From assembly GCA_963709585.1 (NCBI GenBank), contig CAVPXI010000014.1, forward strand, positions 96,001 through 160,000: a DNA stretch of 64,000 nucleotides, read 5' to 3'. The first letter of the stretch is position 1. Each line of letters begins with the position of its first letter. This stretch comes from Candidatus Dormiibacterota bacterium (GTDB taxonomy: Bacteria; Chloroflexota; Dormibacteria; Aeolococcales; Aeolococcaceae). The notes beneath the pieces were generated by a model, which searched no databases, was not told the origin of the DNA, and saw nothing but the letters and a program-made list of their open reading frames with translations. Both the position numbers and the translations under genes were made by a program. Below are positions 1,321 to 11,481 of this stretch, one piece after another.

Positions 1321-2706
1321 ATGACGCAGGTCAGCACGCTGAGCAGGCTGGCGGTGGTGACGGCCGGAGTCCTGGGAATCGCGACCGCATGCGGTTCGAC
1401 ATCGACGCCCGCAACGTCATCGAGTTCGAGCTCATCGAGCGCGAAGATCGGCGGATCGGTCACGGTCTGGGCCGAATGGACGTCACAGGAGCAGCAGGAC
1501 TTCCTGGCCGCGCTGGCGCCGTTTGAGGCGTCGACTGGCATCACCGTGAACTACCAGGGCAAGGGCAACAACATGAGCACCGTGCTCACCACCGCGGTGT
1601 CGGGCGGGTCACCGCCGGACGTGGCCCTCGTCGCCGACCCGGGCACGCTGCAAACCCTGGCCAAGCAAGGCTCGATCAAGGATCTGACCAGCATCGTCGG
1701 CGGCATGGCCTCCAACTTCGGTGCCGCCTGGAACACGCTGGCGACCTACAACGGCAAGCTGTACGGCGTGTGGTTCAAGGGCGCGAACAAGAACACCATC
1801 TTTTACAACCCGGCGCTGTTCACCGCGGCGGGCATCACGTCGCCGCCCACCACGTGGGAGCAGCTGCTCACCGACGCCGCGCAGCTGAAGGCAGCCGGCG
1901 AGACACCCTTCTCGTTGTGCACCGACATCGGCTGGCCGGTCGCGGATATGTGGCAGAACATCTATCTCAAGACCGCCGGCGCCGCGGACTACGACAAGCT
2001 GGCGACGCACACGCTCAAGTGGACCGATCCGACGGTGACCACGGCCTTCACGACCATGGCCCAGCTGGTCGGCCAGACCTCGTACTTGCTTGGTGGACTG
2101 CAGGGTTCGCTGTCCCTCACGTACCCGACGTGCGCGGACAAGGTGTTCCCCAAGCCACCGGCGCAGCCGCAGGCGGCGATGGTGGCCGAGGGCGACTTCG
2201 TGGTCAGCGAGATCGCCGGAAACTCCGCTAATTACAACCCGGGGACGACCGGCGCCGGCGGCGCGGCGTGCACCGCGAGCCCCGCGAGCAAGCCGTGCTT
2301 CGACTTCTTCTCATTCCCGGCGCCGGCAGCGGACAGCGCGAACAGCGGAGCCATCCAGGGTGCGGGTGACGTGGCGATGATGCTGAATGCGACGCCACAG
2401 GCGACCGCGCTCATCAAGTACCTTGCCGGCCCCGAGGGCGGCACCATCTGGGCTCACCTGGGTGGCTTCGCGTCGCCTAACAACCAGGTGAAGACGAGTG
2501 CCTACCCGGATCCCGTCACCCAGGCCGACGCCCAGGCCCTGGTCAGCGCGAGCAGCTTCGTTTTCAGCCTCGACGATCTCCAGGGAAGCTGGGAGCCGAA
2601 GATGTGGGCGGATCTGATCGACTTCCTCAAGAACCCCAGCAGCTCGAACATCTCCTCGATCGAGTCGACGATGGACACGCAGGCGGCGGCCGCTCTCGGC
2701 CACTGA
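1321..2706 (+). CDS. Sugar ABC transporter substrate-binding lipoprotein (AglE/alpha-glucoside-like)
   Basis: RBS GAGGAGGA before ATG 1321; lipobox IATAC followed by a Ser-rich linker; SBP motifs FEASTGITVNY, PPDVAL, NGKLYGVW, PTTWEQL. Confidence 0.9.
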   Translation: MTQVSTLSRLAVVTAGVLGIATACGSTSTPATSSSSSSSSAKIGGSVTVWAEWTSQEQQDFLAALAPFEASTGITVNYQGKGNNMSTVLTTAVSGGSPPDVALVADPGTLQTLAKQGSIKDLTSIVGGMASNFGAAWNTLATYNGKLYGVWFKGANKNTIFYNPALFTAAGITSPPTTWEQLLTDAAQLKAAGETPFSLCTDIGWPVADMWQNIYLKTAGAADYDKLATHTLKWTDPTVTTAFTTMAQLVGQTSYLLGGLQGSLSLTYPTCADKVFPKPPAQPQAAMVAEGDFVVSEIAGNSANYNPGTTGAGGAACTASPASKPCFDFFSFPAPAADSANSGAIQGAGDVAMMLNATPQATALIKYLAGPEGGTIWAHLGGFASPNNQVKTSAYPDPVTQADAQALVSASSFVFSLDDLQGSWEPKMWADLIDFLKNPSSSNISSIESTMDTQAAAALGH

Positions 2707-2803
2707 CCAAGTCACCTCGCGCAAGCGCGGCCGGTCCGGCTCGGAAGCACGAGCCGGGCTGGCCGACAGCGCACCATCCGGGGGGCTGCGCCGGGTAACC
2801 CGA

Positions 2804-3868
2804 ATGCTAGGCTCCGGCAGCGTGGAGGAACGCGCTGTCGTGAGCCCAACGCCGCGAGGATTGCTCACCCGTTTTCTCAACGGCTCCGGCGTGGAGCTCG
2901 GGCCGGGTCATCACCCGATGCCCCTCCCCTTTCCGGGCGTTTCGGTCCGCTACGTGGACCGCTGGCAGCCCGAGGAGAACCTCGCCTTGTTCACCAACAT
3001 CGAGGCCGGGGCAACGTTTCCCAAGCCCGACATCGTCGCCAACCTCGACGTCGACCGCCTCTCGGCTCTTCCTGACGAGAGCCAGGACTTCGTGATCGCG
3101 AGCCATCTGCTCGAGCACCTTGCCGATCCACTCACGCAGATCGACGAGATCCACCGGGTCCTGAGGCCGGGCGCGGTCGTACTCGTCTTTCTTCCCGATC
3201 GGCGCTACACGTTTGATCGCAAGCGGTCCGCGACCCCACTCGCGCATCTCATCGCCGAGCATCGAGAACGGGTCACCGTTGTCAGCGACGAGCACATCGA
3301 GGATTACCTGCGAAAGACCGACGTCTGGGACCCCTCATGGACGCCGGAGCAGGAGCGCGAACAGTTCGAGCTGAACCGCCAGCGATCGATTCACGTCCAC
3401 TGCTGGTCGGAGGACGAATTCCTGCCGGTGCTCGAGTACACCGTCCTCGAGATGGGGATGCGCTGGGAGCTGCTCGACGCCATGTTTGTCGAAGACGTTC
3501 CCGGGGGATTTGAATTCGGATTCGTGCTGCGCCGCTCGCCGGTGGCGGCGGAGCCCGCAGTGATGGCGGAACACCTTCGGCTGTCCTGGCAGGTGCTCGC
3601 GTCGAAGTCGCGCCAGCACGCCGAGGCTGAGCGGCAGATTGCACGGCTCCGTGCGCTGCCGGGCTTTCCGGTGATGCAGCGCGCGTGGCGCGTGCAGCGC
3701 CGGCTGCGCCAGGATTTGACCAGGGCGCTCGACGGCACGCGGGCGGCGACCGTGTTCTCGAGCGGACGTCGCTCGCTAGGCTTGCAACACCGCCGCGACC
3801 GCGCCCACGACGAAGATCAGGGCAAGGTAGGCGAGCGAGTAGTGGAACAGCACCGCCGCAGCGTGTGA
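2804..3868 (+). CDS. Class I SAM-dependent methyltransferase domain protein (Methyltransf_11-like)
   Basis: GVELGPG, DFVIASHLLEH and HRVLRPGA motifs. Start uncertain (2804 or GTG 2840); 3' end overlaps the convergent cyoE. Confidence 0.75.
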   Translation: MLGSGSVEERAVVSPTPRGLLTRFLNGSGVELGPGHHPMPLPFPGVSVRYVDRWQPEENLALFTNIEAGATFPKPDIVANLDVDRLSALPDESQDFVIASHLLEHLADPLTQIDEIHRVLRPGAVVLVFLPDRRYTFDRKRSATPLAHLIAEHRERVTVVSDEHIEDYLRKTDVWDPSWTPEQEREQFELNRQRSIHVHCWSEDEFLPVLEYTVLEMGMRWELLDAMFVEDVPGGFEFGFVLRRSPVAAEPAVMAEHLRLSWQVLASKSRQHAEAERQIARLRALPGFPVMQRAWRVQRRLRQDLTRALDGTRAATVFSSGRRSLGLQHRRDRAHDEDQGKVGERVVEQHRRSV

Positions 3869-4729
3869 TGACCCTTTCGCCCGAGCCCAAAGCGCCAGCC
3901 CGAGATAGCAGCCGCCGAGCACACCGGCTCCCACCGTGTAACCGATGCCGAGCATGAGTCCTGGGAGCAGGCTCGCAGCGATCAGGGCAAGCAGGTACAG
4001 AAGGATCCGCCGGTGGGTCCGGGCGGTACCGATGATCCCCGGGAGCATCGGCACGCTCGCGTTGCGGTAGTCACGTCGAAGCAGGAGCGCCAGCGACCAG
4101 AAGTGTGGCGGGGTCCACAGGAATACCAGCGCAAAGAGCACGAACGCCGGCCATCCGACGTTGTCCTGGACCGCCGCCCATCCGACGAGCGGTGGAAACG
4201 CGCCGGCGGCGCCACCGATGACGATGTTGAGCGGTGTTCTGCGCTTGAGCAGCATGGTGTAGATGAGGACGTAGAAGAGCCCGCCACCGAGCGCCAGCGC
4301 TGCCGCCAGGGTGTTCACGGCAACACTGAACACCACCACCGACGCGACGATCAGCGAGACCCCAAAGGTGAGCGCCTGCCACGGAAGAATGCGACCCGAC
4401 GGGAGCGGACGGCTGCAGGTCCGCGCCATCACCCGGTCGATGTCGCGGTCGTACCAGCAGTTGATCGCGCCGGAGCCTCCGGACGCGAGCGCGCCGCCGA
4501 GCGCCGCCCAGAAGAGCAGCGGGAGTGATGGAACGCCGCGCGCGGCGATGAACATCGTCGCGACTTCGGTGATGAGCAGCAGGACGATGATTCGGGGCTT
4601 GGCGAGGCTGATGTAGTCGCGAGCGTTGGCTCGGATGTCGGTCGACATGCCGAGTGCGACCCCGCCGGCAGCTCCGGCCACGCCGATGGCGTCCGGTGGG
4701 CTCATCGCGATGTCTGCGCTGGTTTGCAT
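3776..4729 (-). CDS. cyoE: Protoheme IX farnesyltransferase (heme O synthase)
   Basis: KPRII, NCWYDRDIDRVMARTCSRPLPSG, YTMLLKRRTP, GAFPPLVGW, WTPPHFWSL, DYRNASVPML. Alternative start at 4648. Confidence 0.95.
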   Translation of the reverse strand: MQTSADIAMSPPDAIGVAGAAGGVALGMSTDIRANARDYISLAKPRIIVLLLITEVATMFIAARGVPSLPLLFWAALGGALASGGSGAINCWYDRDIDRVMARTCSRPLPSGRILPWQALTFGVSLIVASVVVFSVAVNTLAAALALGGGLFYVLIYTMLLKRRTPLNIVIGGAAGAFPPLVGWAAVQDNVGWPAFVLFALVFLWTPPHFWSLALLLRRDYRNASVPMLPGIIGTARTHRRILLYLLALIAASLLPGLMLGIGYTVGAGVLGGCYLGLALWARAKGSSHAAAVLFHYSLAYLALIFVVGAVAAVLQA

Positions 4730-4737
4730 GCCCTCTC

Positions 4738-5265
4738 CTACGCGCTGCCGGTCCGCGATGTGCCCAGGAGCGTGGTGATCTCGGCATTGAAATCCGCAAC
4801 ACTCATGGTCCCCAGTCCTCCGAGCACGACGTCGGCGACCTTGCCCTGCGTGCTGAGAAAGACCAGCGCCGGCGCCGATGGTATCCGGTAGTCGACGGCG
4901 AGCGTCGCATTGGTGTCCGCGATGCTGGCATAGGGCACCCGGAATGTCGATTGAAACGCGAGTGCCGGCCGCGTCGTGTCTCGCAGGTCGATGCCCAGGA
5001 ACGAAACACCGCGGGCGGACCACGTCGCGAACGCGGTGTTCAACGCGGGCTGCTCATCGTGGCAGGGCCCGCACCACGATGCCCAGAAGATGAGCACCAC
5101 GGGATGGCCGCGCAATGAGGTGATGCTCACGTCCTTCCCGGCGAGCGTTGGGCCACCGGACGCGCTGACCTGCTCGGACGGGGCCGATGTCACGTGAGGC
5201 GCACCGCAGGCGGCGACGAGCACGGCGACCGCGCAACCTAGCACGACACGACGATTGCCGCTCAC
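4738..5265 (-). CDS. TlpA/ResA-like thiol-disulfide oxidoreductase lipoprotein
   Basis: Lipobox VAAC; FWASWCGPC active site; YRIPS cis-Pro motif; lies inside the oxidase operon. Confidence 0.9.
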   Translation of the reverse strand: MSGNRRVVLGCAVAVLVAACGAPHVTSAPSEQVSASGGPTLAGKDVSITSLRGHPVVLIFWASWCGPCHDEQPALNTAFATWSARGVSFLGIDLRDTTRPALAFQSTFRVPYASIADTNATLAVDYRIPSAPALVFLSTQGKVADVVLGGLGTMSVADFNAEITTLLGTSRTGSA

Positions 5266-6710
5266 GGTTGCGGAGCCACCGCGTTCGCCGCGGATCGGTC
5301 ATCGACCTCGAACCACCGGATTCCCAGGTAGAGCAGCGCGATGAGGAAGGGTGTGCCGCCCGGGACCCACATCACACCGGCGGCGATCTCCTGGTCCGCG
5401 AGCAGGCTGAGGCCTCCGGTCGGCGTCGGGTACGCGTACAGCGGATTGGTCGCGTATGCGATCAGGATGGCGAGACCCCAACTCACGAACATCCCAAGCA
5501 GGACCACCGCCGCGCGCCCCAGCAGTGACAGTCGCCCGGTTGCGTGGAGCGGGCTGATCACCTGGTCCCAGAACAACAGCCCGACCACGAGAAACGTCAG
5601 GTGCTCGAGATCGTGTACCGATGCGATCCGCAGCGTCGCGTCGTAGATGGCAGGGGTATGCCAGACGAGGAGGTCGACGCTGAACGCGAGCACGACCACG
5701 CTCGCAGCTCTCGAACCCGAATGGAGTACGTGCACGACACGTGCCGGCCACGTTCCCTCGACTTCGATCGGCCGTCCCTGGGCGGCCAGATACCCGGCCC
5801 ACGCGGTTCGAAACGGATCAGCAAGCAGGATGAGTGGAGGTGCGACCAGCAGCAGGAGGACGTGCTGCACCATGTGATCCCACTGCAGCGTGGTGTCGAA
5901 GTACGAGATCGGTGACACCAGCGCGAGCAGGAGCGCACCGATGCCGAGCGCGAACGCCGTATCCCCGTTGTCCCATGTTGTTCCGCGTCCCAGGGCCACA
6001 GAGGCTGTTCGCCGCCCGCGCCAGTACAGATAGGCCGCGGTGGCACAGCCCACGATCGGTACTGGTTCGAAACTCCAGTTGAGCAGCGGTGGCCAGAGCA
6101 TGCCTGCGGATGAGGCGTACTGGATCAGCAGGTATACCGCGATGGAGACGCCGGTAATGTAGGCCCACTGCTCCAGGATGGCCCGGGCATGCGCCGAACC
6201 GAGGCGATCAGTGCCGCGCACGTGCCCCATGATCAGGCTGAGCAACCAGGCCGCGACCCCGATGAACTCAGCAAGCAGGACCGCATACCACAGCGTCGAG
6301 ATATCAGCGTACGTACCGGCGCTGTTGAGCGTCCAGTTGAACTGGTACATGAGTAGGATCCTCACGGCCCCCGTGAGCACTGTGGCCAGGAATGCCAACC
6401 AGAGCAATCCCGTGACCGCGCTGGATTCGCGTGCGCTGCTGACAGCATTCGAAACCGCCAGGAGAGCGACCACCCCGACGACCGGGAACGCGAGTGCGAT
6501 CAACGCCAGCACCTGCGGCGGCGTACCGACGCCACTCGGGTGCCACATGCTCCCGAAGTTATTGGCTCGCAGATACAGGAATGCGAAGAGCAGGCTCAAC
6601 TGAAGCGTCGTGTTCGACGCGATCACCAGCCGCGAACTGAAGATGAGCGTATGCCCGCCACCTTGAGTCTCGTCCATAACGGATAGTCCGGTGGGACTGG
6701 CCTCACTCAT
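5262..6710 (-). CDS. ctaG: Divergent cytochrome oxidase subunit III-like domain in frame with a CtaG (caa3-type) assembly factor
   Basis: N-terminal ~200 aa are multi-TM with IASN..FAFLYLR (subunit III-like). The C-terminal part has HMVQHVLL, WHTPAIYD, HDLEH and DQEIAAGVMWVPG (CtaG). An internal Met at ~6101 could be a separate start. Confidence 0.75.
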   Translation of the reverse strand: MSEASPTGLSVMDETQGGGHTLIFSSRLVIASNTTLQLSLLFAFLYLRANNFGSMWHPSGVGTPPQVLALIALAFPVVGVVALLAVSNAVSSARESSAVTGLLWLAFLATVLTGAVRILLMYQFNWTLNSAGTYADISTLWYAVLLAEFIGVAAWLLSLIMGHVRGTDRLGSAHARAILEQWAYITGVSIAVYLLIQYASSAGMLWPPLLNWSFEPVPIVGCATAAYLYWRGRRTASVALGRGTTWDNGDTAFALGIGALLLALVSPISYFDTTLQWDHMVQHVLLLLVAPPLILLADPFRTAWAGYLAAQGRPIEVEGTWPARVVHVLHSGSRAASVVVLAFSVDLLVWHTPAIYDATLRIASVHDLEHLTFLVVGLLFWDQVISPLHATGRLSLLGRAAVVLLGMFVSWGLAILIAYATNPLYAYPTPTGGLSLLADQEIAAGVMWVPGGTPFLIALLYLGIRWFEVDDRSAANAVAPQP

Positions 6711-6712
6711 GC

Positions 6713-8643
6713 TCAGGCTCCACTCAATGCCGGTACGGCAGGTCCGAAGTCTGCCGCCGGCTTCCCAGTGTCGTAATTGTCTGGGAGCGACCACGAAACC
6801 GGCATCCGATCAAAGTTGAAGGTGGGCACCGGCGTCGGCACCTGCCACTCGACGCCGAGCGACTCCCATGGGTTGGCTGCGGCGACACGCTGCTTGATGA
6901 CAACCTCCCAGATGAGAATGCCGAGGAAGAGCGACATGGAGAGACCCAGCGCGAGCGCGAAGATCGACGCGCTGTCGTTCAGCGGTTGGAGGTACGCTGC
7001 ATAGCTGATGTCGCGGCGCGGCATCCCGAGAATTCCAACGGCGATGAGCGAGATGAACGTCCCATTGAAGGTGAGGAACACCGCCCAGAACTGGTAGCGC
7101 AGGAGCTTGATGTCCATGGTCCGGCCGGTCATCTTCGGAAGGTAATAGACGATCCCGGCCATGAGCGCGAAGACCTCCCCACCCATGATCGTGTAGTGGA
7201 AGTGTGCCTGCACGAAGTAGCTTGCATGGAGCGTGAAGTCGCTCGGGACGTCGGAGAGAAAGACGCCCGTGAACCCACCGATCAGGAAGTTGAAGAAGAA
7301 GGCGAAGATGAAGAGCATCGGGGTGCCGAAGCGAGTTCGAGCGCGCCATAGCGTTCCCAACGCCACCAGGTAGATGATCCCCGTCGGCACCGAGATCATC
7401 TCCGTGGAGAACATGTAGAAGGGTCGCAGCGAGGGTGCGATGCCGCTGACAAACAGGTGGTGCTGCCAGACCACGAAGCTCAGCACGCCGACACCGACCA
7501 TGCCGCCGATTCCTACGCGACGTCCCCAGAGCGGCTTTCTGGCGAAGGCCGGGAGCATCTCCATGACCAGGCCAAAGGCGGGGACGACAAAGATGTAGAC
7601 CTCGGGGTGGCCGAAGAACCAGAAGAGGTTCTCCCACAAGTACGGCGAGCCACCACCCGCGGGGATGAAGAACGTCGCCTGATAGGTGCGGCTGAACATC
7701 TCCATCAGGACCGCGACGATCAGTGCTGGCGCTGCGAGCGCGCCGAGGAACGACGTCACCAGCACTGACCACACGAATACCGGCATCCGGCTCAGGGGCA
7801 TCTCCGGAGCCCGCTTGGTCAGGATCGTCGCGATCATGTTCAAACCAGACAGCGCGATCGAGAGGCCGATCAGGGCGAAGCCCATGAGGTAGGAGTCCAT
7901 GCCGAGGACGTTCTGGTCGGAGAGCGGCGCATAGCCCGTCCACCCCGTGGTGAAGCCACCGAGAAAGACCGTGGAGAGCAGGATCAAGCCGCAGGCGGGA
8001 GGAGCCAGAACGTGAGCGCCTCGAGGCGCGGGAATGCCATGTTGCGCGCGCCGATCATGATCGGCACGAAGTAGTTGCCGAACGGACCGATGATCGCTGT
8101 CGACGCCATGAAGATCATCAGCGTGCTGTGAAGGCCAACCAGCGTCAGATATGACTGGGCGTTCGCCACCGACGGCACGGGAGTCAGCAGCTCGGTCCGA
8201 ATGAACATGGCCCCCAGCCCGCCGATGAACAGGAAGGCGAGGATCATCACCATGTACTGCATTCCGATCACCTTGTGATCGGTGGTCATGCGGAAGTACC
8301 GAAGGAGGCCCCCGCCCTCACCGTGCAGGTAGGCGTTGTCCTCCTCGGTGGGCCTCTTGGCGCCGAAAAGACGGCCGATCGGGTAGTTGAAGAACCCCAT
8401 GCCGGCAAGGAATCCGGCGGCGCTCATGGCGTAGCCGAGCAGAATCCCGGGATCGGAGCCAAGCGAGGTCGGTTCGCCGCCGGCGCCGTAGAAGTTGGAG
8501 ATGGCTCCACTGCCGAGGGCGTACCCGGCGATGAAGCCGATCACTGCGCCGATCAGTCCGAGCAACAGCCCCCACTCATTGAGCCGCCGTGCCAGGGTCG
8601 GCCGTGTCGACATCGATGGCCGGGCGGTGGTTACAGCGTCCAC
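6713..8643 (-). CDS. ctaD: Heme-copper oxidase subunit I, A-family-like (one frameshift near 7985, probably a sequencing error)
   Basis: TTDHKVIG, LHSTLMIF, WFFGHPEVY, WQHH, AHFHY and GMPRR are split across ORFs 7984..8730 and 6713..7987. GTG 8643 follows RBS GAGGGAG. Confidence 0.93.
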
Positions 8644-8680
8644 ATCTGCTCCCTCGTGTGTGTATGCGAGTAGAACGCGG

Positions 8681-9532
8681 TCACGGCGCGTAGACCCCCG
8701 GCTGGGGGAGGTTCGAGCCGGCGTAAACATGGCTGTAGGGCGGGAGGTACTGCATCACCGGGGCATCCAGCGCCGTCTGCTGCTGAATCCACGCGGAGAA
8801 ATCCGTGGCGCTCACCACCATCGCGGTGTCGTCGGTCATGTTGCCGTGCCAGAGACCGCAGAGCTCGGAGCACTGGACGCGATAGGTGCCTGTCTGCGTC
8901 GGCGTCGCGGTCACGACGTTGTCGTTGAGAGGCACGGCGTCAGCCTTCACGCCGAGCGCGTAGAACCAGAACGAGTGGATAACGTCCAGCGACGTGACGT
9001 GGAACTCAATTTTCTGGTTGACGGGTAACACGAGCTGAGCGGTCTCGATGCCGCCATATGCTGGATATCGGTAGGTGAACCACCACTGCTGGGCGATCAC
9101 CTGCACCTCGAGTGGCTGATCGGCCGTCGCCGGCATCGGCAGCGAGGCTGCGGTGGTTGAGATGCCGGCCCCCGGCTGGTCGATGGCGAGCGCCACGGTG
9201 CCGTAGACAGCCAGGCTCAGCACGACGACGAGCGTGGTCGCGATCCAGGTGGTCTGGGCCCGCGTATTGCCTCGAAGCTCGCTCGCGCTCACCTCGGCCG
9301 TGGGCGGGGCCAGTCGGTTGACCACCAGGGTGAAGAACAGCGCCGCAAGGACCGCGGAGAAGACGGGCCACGCGATCACAGAGAGCACCAGGATCACGAG
9401 GCTCTCGCTGGAGGCGAGGTCAGAGGCTTGCCCCGGCGGGATCGGGCCGAGCGCCAGCGCCACATCGCCGGCCACGGCGAGGACGAACCAGACGATGAGC
9501 ACGACCCGGATTGCGGTGGCTCTGTTTCTCAT
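8681..9532 (-). CDS. ctaC: Cytochrome c oxidase subunit II with CuA site and no fused cytochrome c
   Basis: Two TM helices, AQQWWFTYRY, DVIHSFW, CSELCGLWHGNM (CuA ligands). No CxxCH motif. Confidence 0.93.
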   Translation of the reverse strand: MRNRATAIRVVLIVWFVLAVAGDVALALGPIPPGQASDLASSESLVILVLSVIAWPVFSAVLAALFFTLVVNRLAPPTAEVSASELRGNTRAQTTWIATTLVVVLSLAVYGTVALAIDQPGAGISTTAASLPMPATADQPLEVQVIAQQWWFTYRYPAYGGIETAQLVLPVNQKIEFHVTSLDVIHSFWFYALGVKADAVPLNDNVVTATPTQTGTYRVQCSELCGLWHGNMTDDTAMVVSATDFSAWIQQQTALDAPVMQYLPPYSHVYAGSNLPQPGVYAP

Positions 9533-9535
9533 CGG

Positions 9536-10141
9536 TCAGCCCACCTGGAGCTCGCCGGCCATGTAGCCGAGGGTCTGCATCGGACCACCGTTGCCGTAGA
9601 GGGTTCCGGCCCCGCAGGGTACGAAGCACTGCCAGCGGAAGAGGCCCTTCTGGTCCGGCACGACGAAGCTGAACTCGACGACGTTCTGAGTCACTTTCCC
9701 GGACACCCCTTCAAGGGGAACGCTGACCCCGAGATCAGGAACCGTAAAGGTGTGAGCCGGGGTCGTCGGGTCGAGCGCCTGGATCACCTTGCCGTTGACG
9801 GTCATCTCGTTGTTGACCGTGCCTCGGACCAAAGAGAAGTACGGGTTGCGCAACCCGGACGGACTGTCCTGCTGGTCGATGGTGATGTGCACCACCGCCC
9901 CGGCCGGCACCTTGAGATACGTGGTCGGCAGGTAGGAGACCCACGCAGGATGTGGTCCGAAGCCGATCGTGCCGACGGTCGTCAGGGTGAAGTTGACGAC
10001 CGTCTTCCCCTGGATCGTCGCCGAGGTGGACGTCGCCGTGATCTGCTCGGGCGTCGGGTTGAGGAAGCGGGTCACGAAGAACCCGACTGCCACCGCCGCC
10101 ACGACCACACCGGCCACGAGGATCCAGAATCTCGATCGCAT
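9536..10141 (-). CDS. Membrane-anchored cupredoxin-fold protein, first gene of the oxidase operon
   Basis: N-terminal TM helix; VPAGAVVHITI, AHTFTV, GLFRWQCFVPCG...GGPMQTLGYMAGELQV, a cupredoxin-like C-terminal ligand loop. Confidence 0.75.
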   Translation of the reverse strand: MRSRFWILVAGVVVAAVAVGFFVTRFLNPTPEQITATSTSATIQGKTVVNFTLTTVGTIGFGPHPAWVSYLPTTYLKVPAGAVVHITIDQQDSPSGLRNPYFSLVRGTVNNEMTVNGKVIQALDPTTPAHTFTVPDLGVSVPLEGVSGKVTQNVVEFSFVVPDQKGLFRWQCFVPCGAGTLYGNGGPMQTLGYMAGELQVG

Positions 10142-10509: not shown

Positions 10510-11481
10510 TCAGGCGGCATCCTCGGCACTGCGGACGAGACTCAGAGACGCCGGTGCGTTGACGGGCTCGCCCGCCGACGCCGGTATGTTGTCGGGCTCA
10601 CCCGCAATCTCGCGCAGCGTCCGCCCGCTCATCTGCACCCTGACCCAGGCCGCAACCAGTGCGATCACGCTGAGCAGAAGGACGATCCCGATTGCAAGCG
10701 TGGGGACATTGAGGAGCTTGAGACCGGAGACGAGCAGCACGGCGCTGAGCGCACCTCGGATGAACAGCGTCGGGGCATAGGACGAGATGGTCGCTCCGAT
10801 GAGCACCCCAGGAAGACTGCCGATGAGGATCGACGCGGTCAGTCCGAGCTTGAAGTCCCCAAACAGGATGTGGGCGATGGCAGCTGCCCCCACCATGGGG
10901 ATCGCCTGAGCGAGGTCCGTACCCACCATCTGGGATCCGCGCAGGCGCGGATACAGGAAGAGCAGCAGGACGATGACCAGGGTGCCCGACCCGACCGAGG
11001 TGATCCCGACGATGAAGCCGATCGACGCCCCGATCGCCAGCGTCGGGACCCTCTTGACGCGCAGCGCGTCCTCGACCCCACCGGCCTGTCCACTCCTGCG
11101 GTCCAGGTACATCTTGAAACCGAGGGCGGCGACGGCCACGAGCAGGATCGCTCCGAGCGACACGCTGACGATGCTTTGAATTCGAGTCCCGTCGCCGACC
11201 CACTTGAGGAAGGAGACCCCGAGGAAAGCGGCGGGCACCGAGCCGATGGCAAGCCACGCGACCAGACCCCAGCGCACCGTCCCGCGCCCGGCGTGAACAG
11301 CGGCACCGACCGGCTTCATCACCAGGGACGCGACCAGGTCGCTCGCCACGGCCGCGACTGGCTGGACGTGGAACAGCAGGACGAGTACCGGGGTCATGAG
11401 CGCGCCGCCACCCATCCCGGTTAGCCCGACTGCGCATCCGACGATCAGTCCGGCTAGTGCGATGTAAAGGTCGATGTGCAC
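10510..11481 (-). CDS. Sulfite exporter TauE/SafE family membrane protein
   Basis: GLTGMGGGALMTP, AVASDL, GITSVGSG and VGTDLAQA motifs. Confidence 0.9.
   Translation of the reverse strand: MHIDLYIALAGLIVGCAVGLTGMGGGALMTPVLVLLFHVQPVAAVASDLVASLVMKPVGAAVHAGRGTVRWGLVAWLAIGSVPAAFLGVSFLKWVGDGTRIQSIVSVSLGAILLVAVAALGFKMYLDRRSGQAGGVEDALRVKRVPTLAIGASIGFIVGITSVGSGTLVIVLLLFLYPRLRGSQMVGTDLAQAIPMVGAAAIAHILFGDFKLGLTASILIGSLPGVLIGATISSYAPTLFIRGALSAVLLVSGLKLLNVPTLAIGIVLLLSVIALVAAWVRVQMSGRTLREIAGEPDNIPASAGEPVNAPASLSLVRSAEDAA

Follow-up and report, generated by a model that had tools for sequence, protein, structure and literature searches.

The 64,000-nucleotide stretch analysed here (positions 96,001 to 160,000 of the forward strand of contig CAVPXI010000014.1, assembly GCA_963709585.1, Candidatus Dormiibacterota bacterium; the whole stretch is called the window below) carries an oxidase operon arranged as one tight minus-strand gene row: the gene of a cupredoxin-like protein (cup201), coxB, coxA, an open reading frame (ORF) in which a membrane part is fused to ctaG, tlpA and ctaB (Table 1). 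The genome containing the contig comprises 3.5 Mb in 24 contigs and is 88.8% complete, and the closest homologues of the window coxA carry the NCBI name Candidatus Dormibacteraeota. The locus is an intact operon for a CuA-dependent, aa3-type oxygen reductase of the A family. The two main subunits encoded here are without the lysine and the entry glutamate of the K channel, have a glutamate at the neck of the D channel in place of the usual entry aspartate, and contain a Glu353/Ser356 pair in helix VIII of subunit I; the variant pattern holds in 47 of the 79 species genomes scored and in 112 protein clusters.

Table 1. Genes, substituted residues and frame break of the oxidase locus, with positions counted from the first letter of the window.
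Feature	Position	Strand	Remarks
ctaB, heme O synthase	3776..4729	-	NF003349 at 1.8e-101, above cut-off; PF01040
TlpA/ResA-like membrane thioredoxin (copper-site maturation)	4738..5265	-	Pfam AhpC-TSA, Redoxin, Thioredoxin
ORF: family-less N-terminal membrane part and caa3_CtaG CuB-assembly factor	5262..6710	-	PF09678 at 1.8e-41
coxA, oxidase subunit I	6713..8643	-	640 aa with the one-base deficit allowed for; PF00115 on both pieces
coxB, oxidase subunit II	8681..9532	-	PF00116 at 1.1e-18; CuA site, without cytochrome c domain
cup201, membrane-anchored protein	9536..10141	-	201 aa; just upstream of coxB; weakly CuA-domain-like
TauE/SafE family membrane protein	10510-11481	-	PF01925, 2.8e-38; just upstream of the oxidase operon, same strand
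Ala at Mg-site Asp (D412)	7223..7225	-	preceding His411 retained
Ile at K-channel Lys (K362)	7373..7375	-	ATC=I
Ser356, helix VIII	7391..7393	-	one turn below Glu353; Ala in canonical enzymes
Glu353, helix VIII	7400..7402	-	GAG=E; next to Thr352
GHPEVY	7595..7612	-	CuB ligand His284, Glu286, active-site Tyr288
One-base deficit (one G too few)	7990..7991	.	splits coxA into two frames
Glu at D-channel neck Asn (N139)	8020..8022	-	GAG=E
Asn at D-channel entry Asp (D132)	8041..8043	-	AAC=N
Gln at subunit II K-channel entry Glu	9254..9256	-	CAG=Q; E101 in R. sphaeroides, E78 in P. denitrificans

Residue numbers follow Rhodobacter sphaeroides, as in the preliminary description of this DNA, and the codons which that description had assigned to positions 132, 139, 362 and 353 of subunit I and to position 101 of subunit II were all found exactly as it gave them. 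It had also listed the six histidine ligands, the GHPEVY motif, the arginine pair and an LHA at the Mg-site His-Asp; all of these are seen in the window, where H102, H284, H333, H334, H419, H421, E286, Y288 and R481/R482 are kept. Among the K-channel residues tested in subunit I, only T359 is kept, the others being replaced (S365 by V, S299 by M and K362 by I). The D-channel residues E286, N121, N207, S200 and Y33 are present, with N at D132 and E at N139, and a D channel with a moved acid is probably present in this enzyme.

The register was established with HMMER (phmmer) searches against all PDB chains. The segment 'pimigarnmafprlealtfwll' aligns gap-free to Mycobacterium smegmatis chain 6adq_F, whose Asp and Asn stand opposite the window Asn and Glu, and R. 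sphaeroides chain 1m56_A (query residues 194-244 on chain residues 95-146) places N230 on 132 and E237 on 139. In helix VIII, 'stemisvptgiiyl' aligns to 'mtflisvptgvkff' of Corynebacterium glutamicum chain 7q21_D and to the mycobacterial 'mtfliavptgikff', with Ile on Lys, and the subunit II segment 'lrgntraqttw' aligns to 'ihgndrlevvw' of 2yev_B, with Gln on the entry Glu. The 132/139 register is thus given by alignment coordinates, and that of 362/353 by motif alignment to solved chains and to the canonical paralogue of the same genome; these alignments uphold the original register, in which K362 and D132 are absent. Chance can be excluded for the residue pattern because it is conserved across relatives.

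The frameshift noticed in coxA was confirmed as a deficit of one G. Frame A ends with '...FWLLPPAA*' and frame B resumes with 'GLILLSTVF'; the orthologue P0003 (92% identical) reads '...PPAGLILLS...' in a single frame, and a G inserted after position 7990 restores the window frame, the junction then being as in P0003. Contigs of four public runs were compared over positions 7500-8500, two of the four being without coverage of the 7990 site; the Logan contigs of the other two (X1 and X2), one contig per run, carry the extra G at depths of 5.4 of 5.4 and 10.7 of 10.7 and otherwise match the window with 0-2 other letters. These two runs represent two samples of one study, and one of them may be the source sample of the window, so that the comparison indicates a disagreement of the reads with the assembly and does not demonstrate an independent population. 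The frameshift is an assembly or consensus error. A decaying pseudogene whose substitutions arose from read errors, for which the split of coxA could speak, is hardly credible, since the missing G is found in otherwise matching contigs of two runs, the X1 run contigs have codons for 132 and 139 identical to those of the window, and the same residues occur in more than 100 intact homologues; the earlier view of an evolved variant, not decay, is borne out, the variant being selectively maintained. The break lies in a short G run, and other split genes of the assembly may be similar consensus errors.

Intact orthologues of coxA have lengths of 613-648 aa and identities of 58-93%. The AlphaFold 2 model of P0003 (predicted local distance difference test score, pLDDT, 88.6; predicted template modelling score, pTM, 0.90) contains helices 25-49 and 62-79 preceding the canonical core, which begins near residue 120, and alignments of solved chains to the N-terminal piece of the window coxA start no earlier than about residue 117-148 of that piece. 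A Foldseek search with this model gave the bovine and R. sphaeroides subunits I as the best matches (target-normalised TM score 0.90-0.94, root-mean-square deviation 1.4-1.8). The closest solved proteins by sequence, with the same fold, are the actinobacterial aa3 CtaD chains 7q21_D and 6adq_F (C-terminal piece, 1.3e-87; N-terminal piece, 5.4e-22), which differ from the window protein in having Asp132, Asn139, Lys362 and Phe at 353 and in being without the two N-terminal helices. The best solved match of coxB is subunit II of the Thermus thermophilus caa3 oxidase (2yev_B), and the CuA ligand pattern His ... C-S-E-L-C-G-x-x-H-x-x-M is present in the window CoxB. A B-family identity was considered and ruled out, since both sequence and fold are closest to the A family; B-family ba3 chains match coxA at 5e-8 to 6e-6, as against 1e-87 for the A family.

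A scan of GTDB species genomes yielded at least 592 confirmed loci, the best 80 of which were taken; 79 were scored, L032 being dropped because its coxA match was too short. The 12 loci that keep Lys362 (called canonical below) all have Asp132 and Asn139, a residue other than Glu at 353 and Ala at 356; all 67 loci without Lys362 (K-less below) carry Glu353 and Ser356, with no variation among them in the helix VIII ladder Glu353/Ser356/Thr359. The preliminary description had proposed that the changes in the two genes are correlated and that their co-occurrence should be sought across homologues. Subunit II Glu101 is present in 9 of 9 canonical loci with a CoxB found, versus 3 of 63 K-less loci (the K-less residues being Q 43, V 5, L 4, E 3, S 3, A 2, I 2 and M 1, with CoxB not found in 4), and the changes in the two genes are correlated, as had been suggested.

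The loss of Asp132 divides the K-less loci further: 49 are without it and 18 keep Asp132 together with Asn139, the latter being present in 18 of 18 such loci and in 12 of 12 canonical ones. The 132/139 pairs of the 49 loci are R/E in 45 and N/E, G/E, R/S and N/L in one each, so that 47 of the 49 loci without D132, and none of the 30 with it, have Glu139. Residue 362 in the same 49 loci is I (33), T (8), V (6), L (1) or S (1), and residue 412 is G (45), D (2), A (1) or N (1). The six histidines, Y288 and R481/R482 are retained in 47-49 of them; Y288 and H284 are present in all 79 loci. The D channel remains recognisable in the 49 loci, with N207 and E286 in 49, Y33 in 46, N121 in 42 and S200 in 37. 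Three nested layers can be distinguished: the loss of Lys362 with the gain of Glu353/Ser356, then HPEVY with the upstream 201-aa gene in most loci, and then the 132/139 swap, whose taxa, by their record titles, include Dormibacterota, Solirubrobacterales, Thermoleophilaceae, Gaiellales, Acidimicrobiales, Streptosporangiaceae, Nocardiopsaceae and one Chloroflexota metagenome-assembled genome (MAG).

The same picture emerges from protein clusters. The 120 best of 7999 homologues were taken as the close set, most of them intact and 613-648 aa long, and the two subunit I motifs singled out in the preliminary description recur in nearly all of these. An alignment of 222 sequences was made from the window protein, read through with X at the break, its own paralogue and 220 proteins of 560-1200 aa, 50 of the 270 homologous proteins having been dropped for length. 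In the 112 clusters with Glu139, residue 132 is N (53), R (32), G (25) or S (2) and in no case Asp, in agreement with the carboxylate shift from 132 to 139 described earlier; residue 362 is I (96), V (15) or Q (1), and Glu353 is present in 111 of the 112. Glu353 occurs in 0 of 68 clusters keeping Lys362 and in 122 of 151 clusters without it. In a FastTree LG tree of 219 sequences (three with less than 80% coverage were dropped), the Glu139 sequences group in a single clade of 113 tips (support 0.835), whose only exception has His at 139; this clade lies inside a K-less/Glu353 clade of 120 tips (support 1.0) that arises among YS-type (A2) oxidases, and a second, separate small clade contains a mixture of K-less sequences with and without Glu353. 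The tree pattern implies that the link between Glu353 and the loss of the lysine arose few times and that the large counts mostly reflect shared ancestry.

Two further marks of the Glu139 subgroup were seen beside these positions. A Gln just before His333 (7457-7465) is present in 94% of its members, the Asp132 K-less group having Ala, Met or Gly there, and in 96-98% the loop joining helices VII and VIII contains an Arg-Pro pair.

Part of this pattern has been published. Degli Esposti et al. 2021 (PMC8239418; preprint 10.1101/2020.03.01.968255; this and the other papers are cited here from their accessible parts) described a subclade '2TM Chloroflexi & Actinobacteria', with taxa including Ca. 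Dormibacter. According to Supplementary Table S1 and the table of Fig. S7 of PMC8239418, the subclade has two extra N-terminal helices, HPEVY, caa3_CtaG and a membrane 'Cup', and there is no K channel in either subunit, the Lys being changed to a hydrophobic residue and the COX2 Glu replaced. The window agrees with each of these features, having the two N-terminal helices, HPEVY with the Lys and the COX2 Glu lost, caa3_CtaG and close homologues named Candidatus Dormibacteraeota. In the residue columns tabulated there, the window gives Y M I T V E and a COX2 Q; for Ca. Dormibacter the table has Y M V T V E and a COX2 A, and for Acidimicrobium ferrooxidans Y M L T V E and a COX2 Q (PMC8239418). 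K-channel loss was also reported for acidophilic iron oxidisers and for relatives among Actinobacteria and Chloroflexi MAGs (10.1101/2020.03.01.968255), and a 2026 Ferrigenium preprint, in its accessible part, mentions a COX without the K channel in both subunits, the meaning of which its authors left unclear. The K-less lineage is still counted in family A despite the loss of the K channel.

The published description of the D channel differs from what is seen in the window. This channel was called 'essentially conserved' (10.1101/2020.03.01.968255) and said to show 'no significant change' (PMC8239418), whereas the window has lost Asp132 and has Glu at 139; Glu353 and Ser356 are outside the positions tabulated in the accessible part of PMC8239418. 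In the literature searched, part of which was accessible in excerpts, no mention was found of a loss of Asp132 coupled to Glu139, and the Degli Esposti 2020 BBA review and figures S7/S10 may cover it; nor was any mention found there of an invariant Glu353/Ser356 pair, which the same review and figures could hold. The novelty of the variant is therefore divided: the loss of the lysine and of the subunit II Glu was already tabulated for the group, and the D132/E139 swap and Glu353/Ser356 were not found in the accessible print. The pattern matches in part a subfamily that has been described, and this branch is known from sequence, not from biochemistry.

One of the nearest known systems is found among acidophiles. 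The aa3 oxidases of the rus operon of Acidithiobacillus and Acidiferrobacter resemble the window enzyme in having Ile at K362, Glu353, Ser356, Thr359 and Glu286, in having lost Asp132 and in having a cupredoxin gene in the operon; they differ in their identity of only about 34-38% to the orthologue of the window protein, in Leu at 139 and in an extremely acidic habitat, the relatives of the window coming from soil, peat and sediment. The Acidithiobacillus oxidase has reportedly been isolated and is said to be an active O2 reductase. Among 119 additional proteins of the acidophile type, the 116 with at least 560 aa all have Glu353 and Ser356 and are all without Lys362; the set includes Acidithiobacillus ferriphilus, Acidiferrobacter, Acidihalobacter, Acidimangrovimonas and Sulfobacillus thermosulfidooxidans. 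The residues at 132/139 in P0280, P0273, P0286, P0290 and P0320 (Acidithiobacillus ferriphilus, Acidiferrobacter, Acidihalobacter, Sulfobacillus) are N/L, N/L, Q/M, S/G and R/S. With no carboxylate at 132 or 139, the D-channel mouth is not conserved in the acidophile oxidases, contrary to the wording of 10.1101/2020.03.01.968255 in its accessible part.

Low pH had been suggested earlier as a reason for the variant. By their record titles, proteins of the E139 type come from MAGs of Dormibacterota, Solirubrobacterales, Gaiellales, Acidimicrobiales and other Actinomycetota and none from the named acidophiles, and the public runs holding the window stretch carry the labels soil, peat, permafrost and freshwater sediment; acid adaptation as a general reason was ruled out by these taxa and labels, and it does not fit the habitats.

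The arrangement of residues may well belong to a coupled O2 reductase that takes all protons of the negative (N) side through a D channel with a rebuilt mouth, although the chances for and against this reading are about balanced. Electrons would enter at CuA and pass to heme a and then to the heme a3-CuB-Tyr site, the ligands being present in the sequence; the donor is possibly the membrane-anchored cupredoxin-like protein encoded upstream. All residues with an ionisable or hydroxyl group in the lower half of the K route are replaced (I for K362, V for S365, M for S299 and, in subunit II, Q for E101); this would close the route on the N side, and all N-side protons would then use the D channel, where the Asn121/Asn207 neck, Ser200, Tyr33 and Glu286 are kept. 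The single entry carboxylate of this channel would have moved from a surface loop (132) into helix III (139), making the enzyme a natural counterpart of the laboratory D132N/N139D double mutant. In canonical enzymes N139D uncouples the pump, and the double mutant D132N/N139D restored full pumping (PMC7196763, accessible part). The R. sphaeroides double mutant is like the window enzyme in that the carboxylate is moved from 132 to 139 and position 132 is neutralised; it is unlike it in being a laboratory construct with an intact K channel and with Asp at 139, and the natural Glu139 family mostly has Arg at 132. The complete exclusion of Asp132 from the Glu139 clusters would argue that a single carboxylate has been selected for, and with it coupling and continued pumping.

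The exclusion also bears on a different explanation, by which the enzyme would work with the D channel only and without pumping, translocating just the chemical charge, one for each electron, as would suit high-potential donors that deliver electrons via cupredoxins, as in the iron-oxidising acidophiles with the sister enzymes. This is on balance unlikely, though several facts lend it weight: canonical enzymes become uncoupled when 139 carries a carboxylate (N139D, N131D and yeast N99D; PMC7196763), sister enzymes are found in Acidithiobacillus, Acidiferrobacter, Acidihalobacter and Sulfobacillus, 54 of the 60 HPEVY-type K-less operons come with a cupredoxin-like gene, and the canonical oxidase remains in the genome for ordinary respiration. 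By our own thermodynamic estimate from mid-point potentials, the iron oxidation of these acidophiles would not yield enough energy for pumping. The strictness of the exclusion (0 of 112), however, fits selection for coupling, as an uncoupled enzyme would not need Asp132 to be removed, and Glu286 and the Asn121/Asn207 neck are still conserved.

The weakest step of the coupled-reductase reading concerns helix VIII, where Glu353/Ser356 could take over the local proton donation and charge compensation of Lys362 and be refilled from inside the protein. Helix arithmetic places Glu353 nine residues, about 2.5 turns and about 13 Å to the positive (P) side of 362 and about 180 degrees round the helix from it, about 60 degrees from Ser356, with the pair above Thr359 and at about the depth of CuB. 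In canonical structures Thr352 hydrogen-bonds a CuB histidine. Tentatively, and with more doubt than confidence, Glu353/Ser356 can be proposed as an unrecognised substitute for the K-channel lysine, acting as an internal donor and charge compensator beside CuB that is refilled by the D channel, in combination with a D channel naturally re-mouthed as in D132N/N139D in the Dormibacteria/Actinomycetota branch. If true, A-type oxidases would have a third design of proton routing, one whose single input is the D channel, as a mirror image of the B family.

Glu353, Ser356 and Thr359 could also form the upper part of a new second proton path with an unrecognised entrance, giving the enzyme two inputs. 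The invariance of the ladder in the K-less loci would suit such a path, as would the classification of several relatives as having 'KC' or 'hybrid' channels by Degli Esposti et al. (PMC8239418, accessible part) and the small hydrophilic pocket formed by Glu211, Glu215 and Glu280 in the nitric oxide (NO) reductase cNOR, which overlaps the end of the K pathway (PMC3431322, likewise). Nevertheless, this second path is quite improbable: among the K-less signature columns there is no conserved ionisable residue below Thr359, and hydrophobic or amide residues occupy positions 299, 362 and 365 of subunit I and 101 of subunit II. An equivalence of Glu353 to the buried Glu280 of cNOR is a lead, and the two residues could not be aligned.

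The resemblance to these enzymes also touches the earlier suggestion of a different chemistry, such as NO reduction, for which only the extra buried glutamate near the active site speaks, as it recalls NO reductases (NORs). NORs are described as lacking the His-Tyr cross-link residue and as having, instead of CuB, a non-heme FeB with a Glu ligand (10.64898/2026.01.22.701106, accessible part); the window differs from them in the presence of the helix-VI Tyr, CuA and the copper assembly genes ctaG and tlpA. The three CuB histidines and a heme O synthase are present as well, and the best structural and sequence matches are A-family O2 reductases, the B family matching only at about 1e-7. NO reduction is not supported, and a different chemistry is very improbable.

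Several observations weigh against the coupled reductase with an internal donor. Arg, not a neutral residue, stands at 132 in 46 of the 49 loci without Asp132, unlike in the laboratory double mutant, and at Ser201, a further D-channel position, 45 of the 49 have Met, Leu or Ile. Three K-less loci (L012, L018 and L070) retain the subunit II Glu, and 29 of the 151 clusters without K362 are also without Glu353, which is hence not universal among K-less oxidases. The location of Glu353 comes from helix arithmetic and is on the face of helix VIII opposite to 362, so that it may point towards lipid or another helix. Neither 132 nor 139 carries a carboxylate in the acidophile relatives (N/L, Q/M, S/G), which indicates that the lineage can do without one at the mouth, and both the closure of the K route and retained pumping are unproven. 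The proton routing of the variant branch is proposed from the residues found.

Lys362, Asp132 and subunit II Glu101 are textbook examples of near-essential residues in A-type oxidases, and here is a conserved lineage, widespread in soil bacteria, without any of the three. The K-less lineage amounts to a natural experiment on the number of proton inputs required by a pump that reduces oxygen. The finding matters less than was thought in the preliminary description, because the K loss in both subunits had already been published for the group; the residual interest lies in the 132/139 exclusion rule and in the Glu353/Ser356 hallmark as testable handles on proton routing. The exclusion and the association of Glu353/Ser356 with the loss of Lys362 name the residues to mutate and tie a natural enzyme to the laboratory double mutant, and testable relatives exist among named strains and species, including Dictyobacter kobayashii, Acidithiobacillus ferriphilus and Sulfobacillus thermosulfidooxidans. 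The D. kobayashii oxidase (strain Uno11, locus L077) is of the Asp132 type, and none of the best 80 loci of the genome scan comes from a named strain with the Glu139 type.

For Dormibacteria, the variant adds a second, patchily distributed terminal oxidase beside the canonical one. The same genome encodes, on contig 18, a canonical YS-type (A2) oxidase with Asp132, Asn139, Lys362 and the subunit II entry Glu (locus L001, G000:C18:63695-68068, with coxB at 569-1405, coxA at 1336-3096 and a COX15/CtaA heme A synthase at 3110-4099); the variant operon is without ctaA. Of 21 other genomes of the class (families f1-f4, including G173, with a canonical-type match only), five have an orthologue of the variant (G119, G191, G017, G182 and G074), with identities of 55-66% and with the N-terminal extension covered, and each of the five also has a canonical-type match. 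The presence in 5 of 21 genomes, always beside a canonical-type match, indicates that the variant is an accessory second oxidase.

The product of the gene upstream of coxB, cup201, gave no match to any Pfam or NCBIfam family at E<=0.01. It has a weak match to Pfam COX2 (E 0.083), and BLASTP aligned it with the window CoxB (E 0.004), its His and C-x3-C falling on the CuA His and Cys pair; the second CuA His is missing. All 55 aligned copies share H130, C172, C176, M188 and M194. Such a gene is found upstream of coxB in 54 of the 60 HPEVY-type K-less loci (for example, L004:4494-5123), in 0 of 7 K-less loci with Ala286 and in 0 of 12 canonical loci. Membrane 'Cup' proteins were mentioned in operons of such oxidases by Degli Esposti et al. 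(PMC8239418, accessible part), and cup201 may be a new kind of copper site and the electron donor of the oxidase.

The row also holds genes for copper and heme assembly. PF09678 covers residues 256-495 of the ctaG-fusion ORF as listed, and a Pfam search with its N-terminal 255 aa gave no match. This membrane part, of about 230 aa, has three strong hydrophobic segments, and in many related loci its place is taken by a separate ORF; that it represents a divergent subunit III is a guess. Many related loci have a CtaG homologue downstream of coxA. For the thioredoxin ORF, the NCBIfam ResA, DsbE and TlpA models score below their cut-offs. The probable start of coxA is the GTG at 8643, as in P0003, with an ATG at 8613 as the alternative; that of the ctaG-fusion ORF is probably the ATG at 6710, just after the coxA stop, and that of ctaB is probably at 4729 or 4705.

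The P-side Mg and water-exit region seems to have been rebuilt as well. A new Asp ('LSD' of 'FLSDVPSD', at about 7247-7252) lies about nine residues before the lost Mg-site Asp; it is conserved in 99% of K-less loci and absent from canonical ones. The canonical paralogue of the same genome is also without the Mg-site Asp, having Gly there. In 96% of K-less loci the Val that stands two positions beyond His421, a heme a ligand, has given way to Thr.

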